Source: Nitrospinaceae bacterium
GTDB taxonomy: Bacteria > Nitrospinota > Nitrospinia > Nitrospinales > Nitrospinaceae
NCBI GenBank assembly: GCA_965237905.1
Contig: OZ250172.1
Location: 1,664,001-1,728,000, forward strand
Reading direction: 5' to 3'
Length of the DNA: 64,000 nucleotides
Below, piece after piece: positions 56,214 through 64,000 of this stretch. The first letter of the stretch is position 1, and each line of letters starts with the position of its first letter. Below the pieces are notes generated by a model. The model worked only from the letters and a program-made list of their open reading frames with translations. It was not told where the DNA came from and did no database searches. A program made the position numbers and the translations under genes.

Positions 56214-58817
<2,604 letters not shown>

Positions 58818-59052
58818 CTAATCCAAACAAGTAAAATTTAAGAGTATAAATCTAGTAGTAGTAGTAGGGACTGTGTAAATGGGGGAAACCCGGCTAACTT
58901 ATGTATTATAAATATAACTATTAATGAACAAAAACCTCAGTTTCCGGCTTTCTCCGTGGACGGATGGGGATAGTTTTTAGCCGAAATTATTATACCTTAA
59001 TTTCGATGTTTTTATCATAGTTTTTGCACAGCTTTTTTACAGGTTATCCATT
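58818..59052. other. Probable oriC (DnaA-trios plus DnaA boxes)
   Basis: AT-rich tract, (TAG)5 at 58853-58867, GGAC, TGTGTAAA-TGGGGGAAA boxes; TTTTGCACA at 59022-59030 and further degenerate boxes; immediately downstream of dnaA. Confidence 0.85.
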
Positions 59053-60390
59053 TTCAATCAGCTTGATAATCTCCTGAACCTTCTTCCCCATTTCCTTGTT
59101 TTCATTGAGCATACCGGAAACCTTGCGATAGGAGAAAATGACGGTGGTGTGATCTTTGCCGCCAAACTGGCGGCCGATTTCGGGGAGCGATGCCTGGGTA
59201 AATTCGCGACAGATATACATGGCAATCTGACGCGGAATCGAGATGTCCCGGGAGCGCTTTTTGGACTTCAAATCCGCGACTTTTAATTGGAAAAATTGGG
59301 CCACGGTTTTTTGAATATTAGGTATGGTGAAATGGCGATTTTTGTCGACGGTGAAATCCTTTAAAACTTCTTGCGCCAACTCAAGATTAATTTCTCTGCG
59401 GGTGAATGATCCGTAAGCGATGATCCGCAGTAATAAGCCTTCCAGTTCCCGGATATTGGATTTGATATTGTTAGCCAGAAACATAGCCACATCCTGAGGG
59501 ATGGTTTTTTGGTGGATTTCGGCTTTTTGATACAGGATAGCCATTTTCGTTTCCAGGTCCGGCGGCATGATGTCTGCAATCAACCCGCTTTCGAACCGGG
59601 ATCGTAGCCGCTCCTCGATGTTTTGCATATCCTTGGGATAGCGGTCGCTGGAGATGACAATCTGCTTGTGATACTCGTAAAGGGTATTGAAGGTGTAAAA
59701 GAATTCCTCCTGCGTGCGCTCCTTCCCCGCAATAAACTGAATATCATCTACCAGCAGAACGTCCAATGGCCGGTAGCGTTCACGAAACCCCTGCATTCGC
59801 TCTTTTTTAATGGACTCGATTAAATCCACCGTGAAACTTTCTGCGGAGATGTAACGTACCTGGGTCTGTGGATTGGCTTGCACAATGGCATTGCCAATGG
59901 CGTGGAGGAGATGCGTCTTGCCCAACCCGACCGCTCCGTACAAAAACAGGGGATTGTAATTATGGGCCGGGTTCCCGGCCACTGCTTGGCCCGCGGCGTG
60001 AGCGAACTGGTTATTGGGTCCCACCACAAAATTTTCAAAGTTGTATTTCGGATTTAAGAACCCTTTGTTGAACAGAGGGGTAGGTGGGGGTATATCCTTA
60101 ACTTTTTGCGGTTCCTGGACCTCTGTCGATGAGGACGCATTCTTTTTAAAATCACTATTAACCCGGAAGCGCACTGCCAACTTTTTATTGGACACGGTTT
60201 CCAGAGCGTTCTCAATCAGCTCCAGATAGTTTTCCGTCAGGCATTTTTCATAAAAACGGTTGGGCACGGCGATGGTCAAAACGTTTTCATCTTTGGAGCA
60301 GGCATACGTTGGCGTAAACCACGTATTAAAATTTTCAGGAAGAACTTGCTTCTCTATTTCTTCGAGACAGTTGTTCCAAAGAACCTCCAT
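59044..60390 (-). CDS. dnaA: Chromosomal replication initiator
   Basis: FNTWF, YNPLFLYGAVGLGKTHL, DDIQF, QEEFF, RELEG, GKDHTTV; start set at ATG 60390. Confidence 0.98.
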   Translation of the reverse strand: MEVLWNNCLEEIEKQVLPENFNTWFTPTYACSKDENVLTIAVPNRFYEKCLTENYLELIENALETVSNKKLAVRFRVNSDFKKNASSSTEVQEPQKVKDIPPPTPLFNKGFLNPKYNFENFVVGPNNQFAHAAGQAVAGNPAHNYNPLFLYGAVGLGKTHLLHAIGNAIVQANPQTQVRYISAESFTVDLIESIKKERMQGFRERYRPLDVLLVDDIQFIAGKERTQEEFFYTFNTLYEYHKQIVISSDRYPKDMQNIEERLRSRFESGLIADIMPPDLETKMAILYQKAEIHQKTIPQDVAMFLANNIKSNIRELEGLLLRIIAYGSFTRREINLELAQEVLKDFTVDKNRHFTIPNIQKTVAQFFQLKVADLKSKKRSRDISIPRQIAMYICREFTQASLPEIGRQFGGKDHTTVIFSYRKVSGMLNENKEMGKKVQEIIKLIENG

Positions 60391-60911
60391 ACAGGGCTCC
60401 GAGCACTTGGTTTGAAAATTAAAATATATCAGGTAGGAGGACGGCAATATATAAAACGGGTGGATCGAAATCAACTACAAAAGAAATTTAAAATAGTGTG
60501 GGGGTCCTAAGTAAAGTAATAACATGGTCTTCGCGTTCAAAACTTTTTTAAACTTTATCGCTCGACCTTCCTTCATTTTTTATGCGTGGTGATCACCTTA
60601 TTTTCTGCAAGAGCAACGCATTTAAATCCATGAGTTTATCCCGCCACTCCCTTGCGTTGTTTTGCAACTAACAGAAACCCGCGACACGCGGGCGGCAATT
60701 TCAGGTAGGAATTTGCCTCAGGGTTTTTAACGAAACCTTGCGATTTTAAAAGCGTCGTTGCGAAATCATCGTTGCGGTGCATTGTAATCAACGTTCCAAC
60801 CGGCTTCCGTGCGCAGGAAGCCCAACACCCTTCCTCAAGGGACGGACTGTTCGAAACGGTCCGTCCCAGCCCGCCTTAAACGGTTAACCTAAATTCTAAT
60901 CGGAGAACACC

Positions 60912-61100
60912 ATGCAATGGCTGAAAGGTAAGAAAACCTACATCATCGCCGGCCTGATGGCCTCGGCGTCACTCGTTCACCTCATGTCAGGTGATATGGG
61001 CCTCGCGGAATTCGTCACCAGCGAGCACTTGAGCACTCTTTTGGAAGGCGTGGGCCTGGGGACCCTCCGGGCCGGCGTATCCAGCAATCGTGGTTATTAA
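60912..61100 (+). CDS. Small holin-like membrane protein
   Basis: 62 aa, RBS GGAG, KGKKTYII...GLGTLRAGV with hydrophobic segments; first gene of a phage-like operon. Confidence 0.55.
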   Translation: MQWLKGKKTYIIAGLMASASLVHLMSGDMGLAEFVTSEHLSTLLEGVGLGTLRAGVSSNRGY

Positions 61101-61434
61101 TTTCGCACTCGCCGCGCTGACTGCGCTTGTTCTGGCCGGGAACCCCGCGTCCTCGTCCGACAAGAACCGAATCCTCGATGCCCGTTGGTCGCTCAATCCC
61201 GCCGGGCAGTTGCAGTTGTGGTTTGATCCTCTACACAACGGACGGGATGAATTTGAGGAGACGTACACGGTGATCCTCAATGACCGCGCACCCAAAATGT
61301 GCGGCGACCCGGATGGCACCGGCCGGCATACCTGGTTCTTCACCGATGCCCTCCTGATCGAAGTGGTGCCGGTGCGTTCACAGGCTACCCCAATCTACCC
61401 CCATCCTCAAAAACGTAAGGAACTCCCGCGATGA
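61090..61434 (+). CDS. Exported hypothetical protein
   Basis: Signal-like N-terminus; overlaps both neighbours. Confidence 0.6.
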   Translation: MVINFALAALTALVLAGNPASSSDKNRILDARWSLNPAGQLQLWFDPLHNGRDEFEETYTVILNDRAPKMCGDPDGTGRHTWFFTDALLIEVVPVRSQATPIYPHPQKRKELPR

Positions 61435-61937
61435 CTTTGGAAATATTGCGAACAGTTACGCCCTTCATCACCTTGTTGCTGATGATCGGGGTGTGGGTGA
61501 TCGGCTGGCTGGTCAAGCGCCTCATGACCGAAAGCGGTTTGCATTTTGCCGATCTCAAGAAAGAACTGAAGCACAAGATCGATCAGCGTAGCTGGGAGCT
61601 GGAAAAACGCATGGACAAGCTGGAGCGCGACCTCGAAAAACTCGAAGCCTCCCGCCTCGTCGATCAGAAGTATCTGTACGAGCAGTTCGTGCCCAAGGAA
61701 GGGTTTTACCGCACCATCGGCAAAACCGAAAGCTCCATCGGGCGCATCTTCAAACTCATCAACGAACTCAACAAAACGGTCCACCGACTCCCCTCACGGG
61801 GAGGGGGGGGCGAATCGCCGCAGACCAGCGTGACGCTGGACCCAATTTTTGAATTGTGTCCAACGACCGTCGACAGGAGTCAACAGTCAGCGAGCTCCCC
61901 CTCCGGAGAGGAGTCGCCGCCCCCTTCCCATGAATGA
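61431..61937 (+). CDS. TM plus coiled-coil protein resembling Mu-like pre-terminase (DUF2730-type) proteins; C-terminus repeat-derived
   Basis: N-terminal TM, heptad region, QFVPKEGF motif; family A repeat at 61788-61912 is translated. Confidence 0.6.
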   Translation: MTLEILRTVTPFITLLLMIGVWVIGWLVKRLMTESGLHFADLKKELKHKIDQRSWELEKRMDKLERDLEKLEASRLVDQKYLYEQFVPKEGFYRTIGKTESSIGRIFKLINELNKTVHRLPSRGGGGESPQTSVTLDPIFELCPTTVDRSQQSASSPSGEESPPPSHE

Positions 61938-62418
61938 AGCCCATCACGATGCCTCCCTCCAACAGTTGATGGAGGAAATGGTCGACGCCAAACAGGCCGT
62001 CCAAGCAGTCCTCAAAATTTCGCCGGAAGACATTCAGCTCCACCGCATTCACGGGATGTACACCGGCCATATCCTTGACATCCGCAAAACCATGATGCAG
62101 GAGCAGGCCGTCGACCGCGATCAACTGCTGATCGACACCCTGAAAGGGGTGGTCAATTTCCTGCTCCAGAAAGACGAGGGGGAATCGGCCCAATTCATCG
62201 GCGACAACCTGGAAGAGATAGGAAATAAGGTGAAAGAATTTTGGCAGGATTCAAAAGCATTTCCAAATTGGCCAACGGCTACGACGACATCCGGCAACTC
62301 ATCGCCCGCGCCCTCACGCCCTTCGGCAAAACCACCCCCAAACAAAAAGAGCGGCGCAAAAAACGGGCGCAGAAAGACCTCCGCTTCTTCGCCGAAACCT
62401 ACTTCCCGCATTACCTGA
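61931..62418 (+). CDS. Putative small terminase-like protein
   Basis: Helical about 105-aa core directly before terL (position-based call); tail overlaps terL by 178 nt. Confidence 0.5.
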
Positions 62419-63851
62419 CGGCCCCGCCGTCGGAAATGCACCTGGAATTTTATAAGCTGTTCCAAACGGCGATTAATTCCGCTGCAAAAATTGGCAGTCC
62501 GGGCTTCCGGACCGCGCAGGCGGCGCCGCGGGGTCATGCCAAATCGACTCTCTCCTCCCTCATCCTTCCGCTGTGGTGCATCATCGGCGAGAAACGCCGT
62601 TTCATCGGACTGGTGTCCGACACCACCGAGCAGGCGGCGGACTTTCTCGAATTTATCAAGGCCGAACTCGACGCCAATGAGCGCCTTCGTGAAGATTTCC
62701 CCGAGGCCTGCGGCGAGGGTAAAGTCTGGAAAGCGGGACAAGCCATCACTCGCAACAACGTCCGCCTCAAATGCTGGGGCAAACGCAAAGCCATGCGCGG
62801 TGCACGGCATGGCAGTGTGCGACCGGATTTGATCGTCTGCGACGACCTCGAAGGCGACGAGAACATCGACTCGCCGCAACAGCGCGCGAAAGACCGCGAA
62901 TGGTTTTTCAAAGCGCTCATGAAAATCGGCAGCCGCAGGACGGTGACGGTCGTCGTCGGTACGATTCTTCATTACGATTCGTTACTGGCGCAATTGTTGA
63001 AACGTCCCGGCTGGACCGGCCACAAATGGCAGGCGATCCAACAATGGTCCGCCTCTCCTTTATGGGAACAATGGGAAGCGGTGTACGTGGCGCGCCAGGA
63101 GGACCAGGCCGACCGATTCTTTAACAAGCATCAAAGGGCGATGCTCGACGGCACCGATGTCCTCTGGCCGGAAGTGGAGGATTATTATTACCTCATGAAA
63201 ATGCGCGTGTCCGATGGCCCGGCCTTCTTCGATTCGGAAAAGCAGAACGAGCCGGTGAATCCCGACGACTGCCTGTTCAGGGAAGAGTGGCTGACCTTTC
63301 TCGATGAAGAGCGCGTGCTCCGCAACCTGGAGTGGAAAACCTATAGCGGGTTTTATTGCGCCGTTGACCCGTCACTCGGCAAGCAGTCGAAGGGCGCCGA
63401 CCCGTCCGCCATCATCGTGGCGGGTGTCGATGCCGAAGGCTATGTCGATGTGCTGGAGGCGGATATCCGGAAACGTCCGCCCGACGCCATCATGGAAGAC
63501 TTGTTAACTCTGCATAAGAAATACCGCTTCACCCTGGCGGGGATCGAGGAGATCCAGTTTCAGGAATTATTTAAGGATTGGGTCATCAAGGAAAGCACGA
63601 AGCGCAAACTCTACCTGCCCGTCGAGGGTATCCGTCCCAACAGCGATAAAGTCCTGCGTATCTCCAAAATGCAGCCGCACATCAAAAACGGCATCATCCG
63701 TTTCCAGCGGAACCAGACGCAGTTGATCGACCAACTGAGATACTTCCCGAAAGCCGACCACGACGACGGACCCGATGCCCTCGAGATGGTCTTCAGCCTC
63801 ATCACCCACCACACCAGCTTCGGCCCGCGAATTCGAAATCTATCCGTTTGA
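62241..63851 (+). CDS. terL: Phage terminase large subunit (Mu-like type)
   Basis: FFAETYFPHY, Walker A APRGHAKST, RGARHG-RPDLIVCDDLE, VGTILH, nuclease AVDPS, HDDGPDALE. Confidence 0.92.
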   Translation: MAGFKSISKLANGYDDIRQLIARALTPFGKTTPKQKERRKKRAQKDLRFFAETYFPHYLTAPPSEMHLEFYKLFQTAINSAAKIGSPGFRTAQAAPRGHAKSTLSSLILPLWCIIGEKRRFIGLVSDTTEQAADFLEFIKAELDANERLREDFPEACGEGKVWKAGQAITRNNVRLKCWGKRKAMRGARHGSVRPDLIVCDDLEGDENIDSPQQRAKDREWFFKALMKIGSRRTVTVVVGTILHYDSLLAQLLKRPGWTGHKWQAIQQWSASPLWEQWEAVYVARQEDQADRFFNKHQRAMLDGTDVLWPEVEDYYYLMKMRVSDGPAFFDSEKQNEPVNPDDCLFREEWLTFLDEERVLRNLEWKTYSGFYCAVDPSLGKQSKGADPSAIIVAGVDAEGYVDVLEADIRKRPPDAIMEDLLTLHKKYRFTLAGIEEIQFQELFKDWVIKESTKRKLYLPVEGIRPNSDKVLRISKMQPHIKNGIIRFQRNQTQLIDQLRYFPKADHDDGPDALEMVFSLITHHTSFGPRIRNLSV

Positions 63852-63893: not shown

Positions 63894-64000
63894 ATGGATC
63901 AAAACCCATCAATCCCTGCGCCTCTACCGGTATTCGAGATTATACGCAACGCCTTGCAGTTTGCCTGGGACAAGCGGGCGCGGATGCTGCGTGCCTTATC
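63894..64000 (+). CDS. Start of a hypothetical protein (truncated by window edge)
   Basis: MDQNPSIPAPLPVFEIIRNALQFAWDKRARMLRAL..., open to the edge; not recognisably a portal protein. Confidence 0.45.
   Translation, partial: MDQNPSIPAPLPVFEIIRNALQFAWDKRARMLRAL

Follow-up and report, generated by a model that had tools for sequence, protein, structure and literature searches.

A dnaA-linked, prophage-derived virion gene cluster in the Nitrospinales as a candidate gene transfer agent

We analyzed a stretch of 64,000 nucleotides from a Nitrospinaceae bacterium (assembly GCA_965237905.1, contig OZ250172.1, forward-strand positions 1,664,001 to 1,728,000; the window hereafter means this whole stretch), in which a phage-type terminase cassette lies beside dnaA. 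The cassette belongs to a cluster of ~18 kb (G000 1,724,795-1,743,176) that extends to the right past the window. The cluster contains, in this order, Mu-type small and large terminase genes (TerS and TerL), HK97-type portal, protease, capsid, adaptor, tail-tip genes, a CI-like repressor, and two putative activators. Comparison with related genomes indicated that it is very probably a prophage-derived virion cluster domesticated under selection and inherited vertically. That it acts as a gene transfer agent (GTA) packaging host DNA seems probable to us, with some reserve. G000 denotes the source genome (3.09 Mb, a single contig), G001 and so on its relatives, and f1 to f4 four families, G000 being a member of f1. 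The features are as follows, in window positions up to 64000 and in positions of contig C1 of G000 thereafter.

59044-60390, minus strand: dnaA (Pfam Bac_DnaA, E 5e-71), host gene and left anchor, divergent from the cluster
60795-60879, plus strand: two-hairpin leader motif, a proposed attenuator, matched by leader model R1
60912-61100, plus strand: 62-aa small hydrophobic protein, holin-like by position only, present in 29 genomes
61090-61434, plus strand: 114-aa secreted-type protein, in four genomes only, no Pfam or PHROG match
61431-61937, plus strand: transmembrane (TM) coiled-coil protein of Mu-like packaging cassettes, with a host repeat at ~61790-61921
61930-62418, plus strand: TerS without the N-terminal helix-turn-helix (HTH) region, overlapping terL in a different frame over its final ~55 codons
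62241-63851, plus strand: TerL, Mu-type, motifs intact, phrog_38
63894-64000, plus strand: inserted 272-aa membrane-protein gene, only its start lying in the window
G000:C1 1,727,894-1,729,465: two inserted genes, occurring in only four and two genomes
G000:C1 1,729,961-1,731,148: portal, HK97-type
G000:C1 1,731,233-1,731,769: S78 protease
G000:C1 1,731,828-1,733,018: major capsid protein
G000:C1 1,733,068-1,734,473: 128-aa and 90-aa head genes and adaptor
G000:C1 1,734,470-1,740,328: Dit-like, 105-aa, 1007-aa hub-like, collar, 148-aa, and fiber genes
G000:C1 1,740,699-1,740,971, minus strand: response regulator, frameshifted
G000:C1 1,740,971-1,741,864, minus strand: CI-like repressor
G000:C1 1,741,887 and 1,741,918: operators
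G000:C1 1,742,161-1,743,176: two putative activators, facing the repressor
G000:C1 1,751,770: parS-like site

The five cassette genes are mutually overlapping plus-strand open reading frames (ORFs) divergent from dnaA, just where the first-pass annotation had placed them. That annotation regarded them as a stand-alone or fragmented cassette. We rejected this view: the cassette is the left end of the cluster, the portal of G000 begins 2.1 kb after TerL with two inserted genes in between, and the head, tail-tip, and regulator genes follow contiguously to the right of the window. The next ORF is no portal, as had been suspected; it is the inserted 272-aa membrane-protein gene. The reported lack of integrase, transposase, repressor, and att site applies to the interval between dnaA and the cassette, whereas a CI-like repressor is located at the far end of the cluster. 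The composition, described as host-like, proved to be so in one respect. The GC content over terL and the head genes is 56-60% vs 50.5% for the genome, and the GC content at third codon positions (GC3) of terL, portal, and capsid falls at the 93rd-99th percentile among 1305 long ORFs; however, the GC3 of the cluster tracks the host GC3 across 25 genomes (r 0.80). The record titles of close capsid relatives give Nitrospinota, Nitrospinaceae, and Nitrospina.

TerL was assigned to phrog_38 (E 1.5e-111), with Pseudomonas phages JBD24/DMS3/MP38 as the nearest phage records (43.5%). The Walker A, Walker B, and nuclease motifs, already noted as intact, are conserved across a 42-row alignment. The 38 cluster TerLs form one clade with a support of 1.0, separate from 35 phage TerLs. 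No solved structure was matched by the sequence of TerL or the adaptor. The TerL of G032 carries a low-complexity in-frame insertion of ~90 aa.

When the profile of the cluster TerS was run against 3488 ORFs of Mu-like phage loci, the pre-TerL genes came out on top. The alignment covered only residues 74-171 of the phage pre-TerL proteins (hhalign 91%). A search of 1.84 billion representatives yielded closer, full-length relatives, eight of which (175-192 aa) were aligned. Residues 4-107 of the cluster TerS correspond to residues 72-175 of these eight proteins (hhalign 99.9%). These in turn align end to end with the phage pre-TerL proteins (99%), and we therefore take them to be probable phage genes; they gave no Pfam HTH match, and their genomic context was looked for and not found. 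DUF1804 was matched by 10 of the 22 phage pre-TerL proteins and HTH_23 by 8, while none of 24 cluster TerS proteins gave any domain match. Thus profile searches and the hhalign comparison with full-length relatives bear out the earlier remark that TerS has no N-terminal HTH: the region absent is the roughly 70-residue N-terminal HTH region of the closest relatives. In most genomes, ~35 codons only lie between the upstream stop and the conserved TerS His38, which leaves no room for it. An HTH hidden in another frame was considered and rejected, the phage TerS N-terminal profile having no significant match in any cluster locus or in G000. RcGTA TerS is described as having no HTH domain, and Sherlock et al. 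propose that its loss abolishes specificity (PMC6854486). By analogy, the cluster TerS may have lost its sequence specificity.

The distribution of the cluster was mapped with TerL at E<=1e-20 among 120 genomes of the phylum. TerL was detected in 45, namely G000, 11/20 genomes of f1, 28/70 of f2, 4/5 of f4, 0/6 of f3, and 1/18 of other families, and the single match outside the four families is distant (31-35%). Because many genomes are incomplete, misses are not to be read as absences. TerL adjoins dnaA in 39 of the 44 Nitrospinales-group genomes that have it, i.e., wherever the flank was assembled, and lies elsewhere in none; in G002, G007, G026, G029, and G070 the contig ended before dnaA was reached. 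Of the 43 TerS-bearing genomes, 39 have TerS at a distance of 619-2620 bp from dnaA, G020 across the circular join. All ten core genes were detected in 21 genomes. Four f3 genomes have the regulator block only, and the cluster is missing from six examined loci (G011, G015, G022, G027, G039, and G046). Scattered deletions at a fixed site are, as far as the assemblies tell, what repeated loss of a single ancestral locus would leave.

Some partial loci were observed besides. In G008 (L033), terL is intact, the portal-to-tail part is deleted, and the regulator block is inverted; no capsid match was obtained in this genome, which is 95% complete. A lone capsid gene (58%) occurs in G056 (L060, G056:C1:14875-16062), and no other cluster gene was present within the 20 kb fetched. 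Two IMG/VR contigs filed as viruses (L194 and L195) are internal cluster pieces, one tube-less and one with a tube.

In G000, the host genes etfB, etfA, rsmG, parA, and parB are located to the right of the cluster. The GC-skew minimum falls inside it and the sole parS-like site lies 9 kb beyond, which places the cluster in the origin region. No clear DnaA-box cluster was seen between dnaA and the cassette, and oriC therefore has no exact placement. On the other side, gyrB and gyrA follow dnaA directly, without dnaN or recF in between. The spacer at 58817-59044, with a DnaA-box-like site at 59022, may be oriC.

Inheritance was examined with FastTree on the 25 genomes having RpoB, TerL, portal, and capsid. 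The cluster tree and the tree of the unlinked RpoB have 19 of 22 splits in common, with no conflict at a support of at least 0.95. Shuffled labels gave 0.14 common splits on average and at most 3. The patristic correlation between cluster and RpoB is 0.91-0.96; for reference, RpoB and DnaA share 20 of 21 splits. These results lend good support to a scenario in which the cluster was fixed between dnaA and etfB/rsmG-parAB in the Nitrospinales ancestor and has been inherited vertically since.

The ratio of nonsynonymous to synonymous divergence (dN/dS, Nei-Gojobori) was calculated for 20 chosen congeneric pairs, which are non-independent, and values at dS 0.05-2 were retained. The medians are 0.089 for TerL (17 pairs), 0.056 for the portal (16), 0.070 for the protease (17), 0.073 for the capsid (16), 0.144 for TerS (18), 0.114 for the adaptor (13), 0.152 for the Dit-like gene (13), 0.110 for the hub (8), and 0.063 for the tube (9), as compared with 0.047 for RpoB and 0.057 for DnaA (14 pairs each). 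The neck gene is the loosest, with a median of 0.22 and a value of 0.80 in one low-dS pair. For G017-G020, the dS of terL and the head genes is 0.24-0.36 vs 0.73 for rpoB, which may reflect exchange within the genus. Both the conservation of terL beside dnaA and the congruence of the cluster and host trees, named by the first-pass annotation as checks on its idea, were thus observed.

We also searched for signs of mobility. The 158 other ORFs of at least 100 aa in or near the clusters were reduced to 112 representatives, 110 of which were scanned together against Pfam and the other two separately. Among the 110, there was no tyrosine or serine integrase, Mu transposase, primase, or helicase; the only mobile pieces in the scan were IS3 and IS110 in the part-deleted G045. 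The five integrase-family genes of G000 are all >0.7 Mb away from the cluster. Direct repeats shared by the flanks reach 10 bp at most, random stretch pairs most often giving 11, so that no att repeat stands out. Read contigs of three runs over a 20-kb stretch, which stops 1.2 kb short of the right end of the cluster, had joints at repeat copies or short sides only and none linking the cluster ends, although contigs drop rare forms. The first-pass annotation had allowed for a complete prophage continuing to the right. What continues there is not one, because integrase, excisionase, and replication genes are all missing from the locus.

The head genes resemble those of RcGTA. The best solved matches of the portal and the capsid are Rcc01684 and Rcc01687 (E about 5e-71). 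Phage capsids reach 38-45% identity, the best being that of Azospirillum phage Cd (45%). The Dit-like gene is a weak assignment from one homologue. Fold searches with the 141-aa and 105-aa proteins gave no clear match (best Z 2.7 and 5.7), and an atlas search with the former returned unrelated-looking clusters.

The tail differs between families. Most clusters of f2 and f4 include genes for neck, terminator, tube (PF18906), and a short tape measure, along with two that are chaperone-like. The tape measure protein has 162-372 aa or is absent, and its gene adjoins terL in some genomes. All five neck/tube genes occur in 13 of 14 complete clusters outside f1, while none of the seven complete f1 clusters has any. 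The adaptor and the Dit-like gene are -1 to 244 bp apart in 8 f1 genomes vs 1.6-6.0 kb in 17 others. The family f1 has lost neck, tube, and tape measure, with the tail tip kept under selection. Profile and tblastn searches of G000 for neck, terminator, tube, chaperones, and tape measure returned nothing, and the idea of dispersed tail genes in this genome was rejected. A tube search of 21 f1 genomes gave matches only in G011 and G016; these lie within separate lambda-like phage regions, and we rejected them as satellite loci. In G032, the usual tip is exchanged for one of RcGTA type (DUF2460, hub, NlpC/P60, Rcc01698_C; L057:35-5228). This type was not found in G000, nor at full length in the other loci searched.

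The two lambda-like regions were inspected. An apparently complete prophage occupies ~3,000-38,500 of G016:C12 (L208, L203, L209). It has integrase, excisionase, repressor, replication gene, lambda-type TerL, portal, a protease-capsid fusion, and a 572-aa tape measure, and its tail genes are homologous to those of the origin cluster. The other region lies on a 37-kb contig (G011:C2; L206, L207). Its terminator, tube, and chaperones are likewise related, its tape measure has 799 aa, and no integrase was identified in it. These phages illustrate the appearance of the tail donor and the genes that a real prophage has in these hosts.

At the left end of the cluster, the 62-aa gene has a median dN/dS of 0.13 in its 29 genomes. 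Its earlier description as holin-like agrees with its size, single hydrophobic segment, and position; searches of Pfam, PHROG, and the phage loci gave no match. An M15-type endolysin gene occurs at the cluster start in 10 genomes. The 114-aa exported protein is probably a passenger, since it was found in 4 genomes only. The TM coiled-coil gene is present in 36 genomes (dN/dS 0.09), and in 4 phage loci its profile matches the gene two positions ahead of TerS (E 2e-8 to 6e-6). As reported before, a host repeat has entered this gene without breaking the operon: it is an in-frame insertion of ~132 bp relative to G001, and the overlap with TerS is preserved. The repeat belongs to a dispersed GC-rich family with the core CTCCCCGGAGGGGGA, which gave 82 blastn pieces genome-wide, self-matches included, many of them near the origin. 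Further copies lie at G000 1,729,789, 1,729,882, and 1,731,107. The terL-to-portal interval is a passenger hot spot in many genomes (L034, L035, L036, L045, L127); dCTP deaminase-like, cytochrome c, thiamine salvage, and fiber-like genes occur there, as do relocated tail genes.

Several control elements are conserved. The repressor retains the Ala-Gly site and Ser in 23 of 23 sequences and Lys in 22 of 23, residues that we take to serve self-cleavage as in LexA and CI. In its divergent promoter, f1, f2, and f3 have the palindrome GGGACAnnTGTCCC, usually doubled and often degenerate; the search pattern matched 13 of 23 upstream regions. Opposite the repressor are the two putative activators, of which one is Cys-rich and the other has a sigma-region-4 HTH. 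Among the 64 homologues of the Cys-rich protein, the named ones are all from Nitrospinota except for one Desulfobacteria label. The first gene is preceded by the leader, which consists of a short hairpin with a GCGC-like loop, a C-rich spacer, a strong hairpin, and a pyrimidine tail. Across 58 loci, model R1 gave 39 matches at E<1e-5, including 9 outside the training set, and G000 has one strong copy. Compensatory changes exceed those of all 500 shuffles, although registers slid by +1 or +2 pair nearly as well. RNAalifold on the MAFFT alignment recovers the first hairpin only, the second being seen per sequence, and no Rfam family was matched by the leader. Conservation of leader and operator suggests damage-inducible control. 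In four f3 loci (L146, L147, L148, L072), the response regulator, repressor, operator, and both activators stand beside dnaA, and no virion gene was found; this block may control something else. In Caulobacter, the LexA-like repressor RogA, which is without these catalytic residues, acts over two activators (PMC9632790), and the GTA operon has an early terminator, which an anti-terminator overcomes (PMC11150451). The cluster may share this anti-termination logic.

With these results in hand, we attempted to explain what the cluster does. Domestication is well supported by the fixed position, the tree congruence, the purifying selection, and the truncation of TerS. The core idea of the first-pass annotation, a domesticated, HTH-less, GTA-like system anchored at the origin, is strongly supported; what fell away is the fragmented cassette. 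Judged by its homologies, the cluster is a mosaic of a Mu-type terminase, an HK97/RcGTA-like head, and a siphovirus tail common to temperate phages of the same hosts. This points to a new GTA-like lineage of independent mosaic origin. In the mechanism we propose, the repressor would bind the palindromes and silence the two activators until DNA damage leads to its RecA-stimulated self-cleavage. The activators would then turn on the operon and permit read-through of the leader hairpin. TerL, with a TerS blind to any specific end, would cut chromosomal DNA with little sequence preference, and the heads would be filled by the headful rule. After cell lysis, kin would take up the DNA for recombination or repair. 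A fuller picture, which we offer tentatively as possible rather than probable, is an independent GTA of the main marine nitrite oxidizers with convergent loss of the TerS HTH, a lambda-like tail, a locus held at the origin, and a tube-less particle in one family. In that family, f1, the tail tip would dock directly on the head, without tube or tape measure. We know of no precedent for such an architecture.

A number of points weigh against the GTA reading. The system is known here from its sequence. The loss of neck, tube, and tape measure in f1 is hard to reconcile with ordinary DNA injection. Low dN/dS by itself also fits active phages. The activator roles are assigned by analogy. In G000, the M15-type endolysin gene was not found, and a frameshift follows about codon 90 of the response regulator. 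Frames are broken in G036, and internal deletions keeping one or both ends occur in G004, G008, G013, G019, G040, G044, G045, G054, and G069. Loss has been frequent: besides G000, the four families comprise 101 genomes, many of them incomplete, of which 43 have TerL, and none of the six in f3 does.

Some of these points would suit a domesticated device that does not transfer DNA, which we consider rather unlikely. It would make DNA-filled or empty particles, or shred DNA and lyse the cell, as a decoy, abortive-infection, or kin-feeding system with a dispensable tail. The stepwise tail loss with head and tip still selected agrees with it, as do the tape measure of 162-372 aa, sometimes moved beside terL, the absence of neck and tube in 7/7 complete f1 clusters, and the f3 regulators without virion genes. 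However, portal, terminase motifs, adaptor, Dit-like gene, and hub are conserved as expected for DNA loading and delivery, and all five neck/tube genes are kept in 13/14 complete clusters outside f1.

The fixed site could alternatively reflect lateral transduction anchored at the origin. Packaging would start in situ near the cluster, and mostly origin-region DNA including the cluster would be carried, restoring it in kin. The unbroken dnaA linkage is in line with this idea, differing from the RcGTA-like clusters of Rhodobacterales, which are described as terminus-near (PMC9836097), and the low dS of terL and head genes in G017-G020 (0.24-0.36 vs 0.73 for rpoB) hints at within-genus exchange. 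Nevertheless, we judge it unlikely: the domain that would recognize the start site is the domain lost, there is no supported tree conflict with the host, and the host genes on the flanks keep their order in any case.

A remnant of an ancestral prophage, in slow decay and now without function, would account for the many independent deletions, some broken frames, the inserted passengers and repeats, and the frameshifted regulator of G000. It appears improbable, being already largely refuted by the selection data: with dS as high as 2, dN/dS stays at 0.06-0.15 in several genera, all ten core genes were detected in 21 genomes, and leader structure and operator are conserved. That an active temperate phage or a helper-dependent satellite integrates time and again at a hot spot next to dnaA is highly improbable, because the prophage-like repressor switch with intact self-cleavage residues and the two IMG/VR contigs carrying cluster genes are met by a single copy at one site, the lack of integrase, transposase, replication gene, and att repeat, a host-congruent tree, and the fact that both viral contigs are internal fragments without informative ends.

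The cluster offers a GTA candidate that spans an order and belongs to another phylum. The TerS HTH has been lost here a second time, apparently independently, which makes the idea that this loss defines GTA-type packaging testable. The natural full, short-tail, tube-less, and deleted versions provide a test of the particle's purpose. The host-owned cluster may also be what lies behind some of the "phage remnants" and viral contigs attributed to these bacteria. Nitrospinaceae are reported as the majority of marine nitrite oxidizers (PMC13768755), and cultured Nitrospinales relatives exist (PMC8026999), so that induction and particle sequencing are feasible. Known GTA lineages are few, with three families formally proposed (PMC9662315), and the discovery of new ones is said to be limited by their likeness to prophages (PMC6854486). 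We found no published description of a dnaA-linked Nitrospinales cluster in a search covering few subscription journals and no bioRxiv supplements. The word "phage" does not occur in the main text of PMC3578206, and the main text and two of six supplement passages of PMC8026999 mention phage-related genes and remnants, with nothing there on capsid, terminase, or transfer agent.

Finally, we compared the cluster with known systems. The lambda-like phages of G016:C12 and G011:C2 have related tail terminator, tube (43-46%), and chaperone-like genes, and that of G016 also has the Dit-like, 105-aa, and hub genes. They differ in the lambda-type terminase and portal, the 572-aa and 799-aa tape measures, and a replication-like gene with a DnaA N-terminal-like stretch, G016 having integrase and excisionase in addition. 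Mu-like phages are transposable and package by a headful mechanism with host DNA at the ends. Those compared (Pseudomonas JBD24, DMS3, MP38, and uncultured relatives) have a TerL 43-54% identical and show the same gene order, with a TM coiled-coil gene ahead of a DUF1804-type TerS. In contrast, the cluster has no transposase and no Mu-type portal or head, and what stands in these phages between the coiled-coil gene and the TerS core, a 100-aa gene and the TerS HTH, is missing from it. Conversely, the portal or protease of the cluster occurred in none of 40 phage loci. Dd1 and VTA are likewise independent domestications of phage structural genes. The same is described for BaGTA and VSH-1/BhGTA in other hosts (PMC9662315).

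The closest likeness in anatomy is to RcGTA and CcGTA, of the Rhodogtaviriformidae and alphaproteobacterial type I GTAs. RcGTA gives the best solved matches for the HK97-type portal and capsid. The systems share a head-tail cluster without replication genes, vertical inheritance, and, as described, the HTH-less TerS (PMC6854486). A repressor over two activators and a terminator near the operon start are described for Caulobacter (PMC9632790, PMC11150451). There are differences as well. RcGTA TerL groups with P22-like headful enzymes (PMC7947584), whereas the Nitrospinales TerL is Mu-type, a contrast drawn from the published grouping only. The Nitrospinales tail tip is of another kind in nearly all genomes, and one family is tube-less. 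Unlike in these systems, the regulators lie inside the cluster, and the repressor keeps the catalytic residues that RogA lacks. The cluster sits at the origin and in another phylum, while RcGTA-like clusters are placed near the terminus in Rhodobacterales (PMC9836097). By these comparisons, the cluster is RcGTA-like in anatomy and, on TerL and tail tip, lies outside the RcGTA family.

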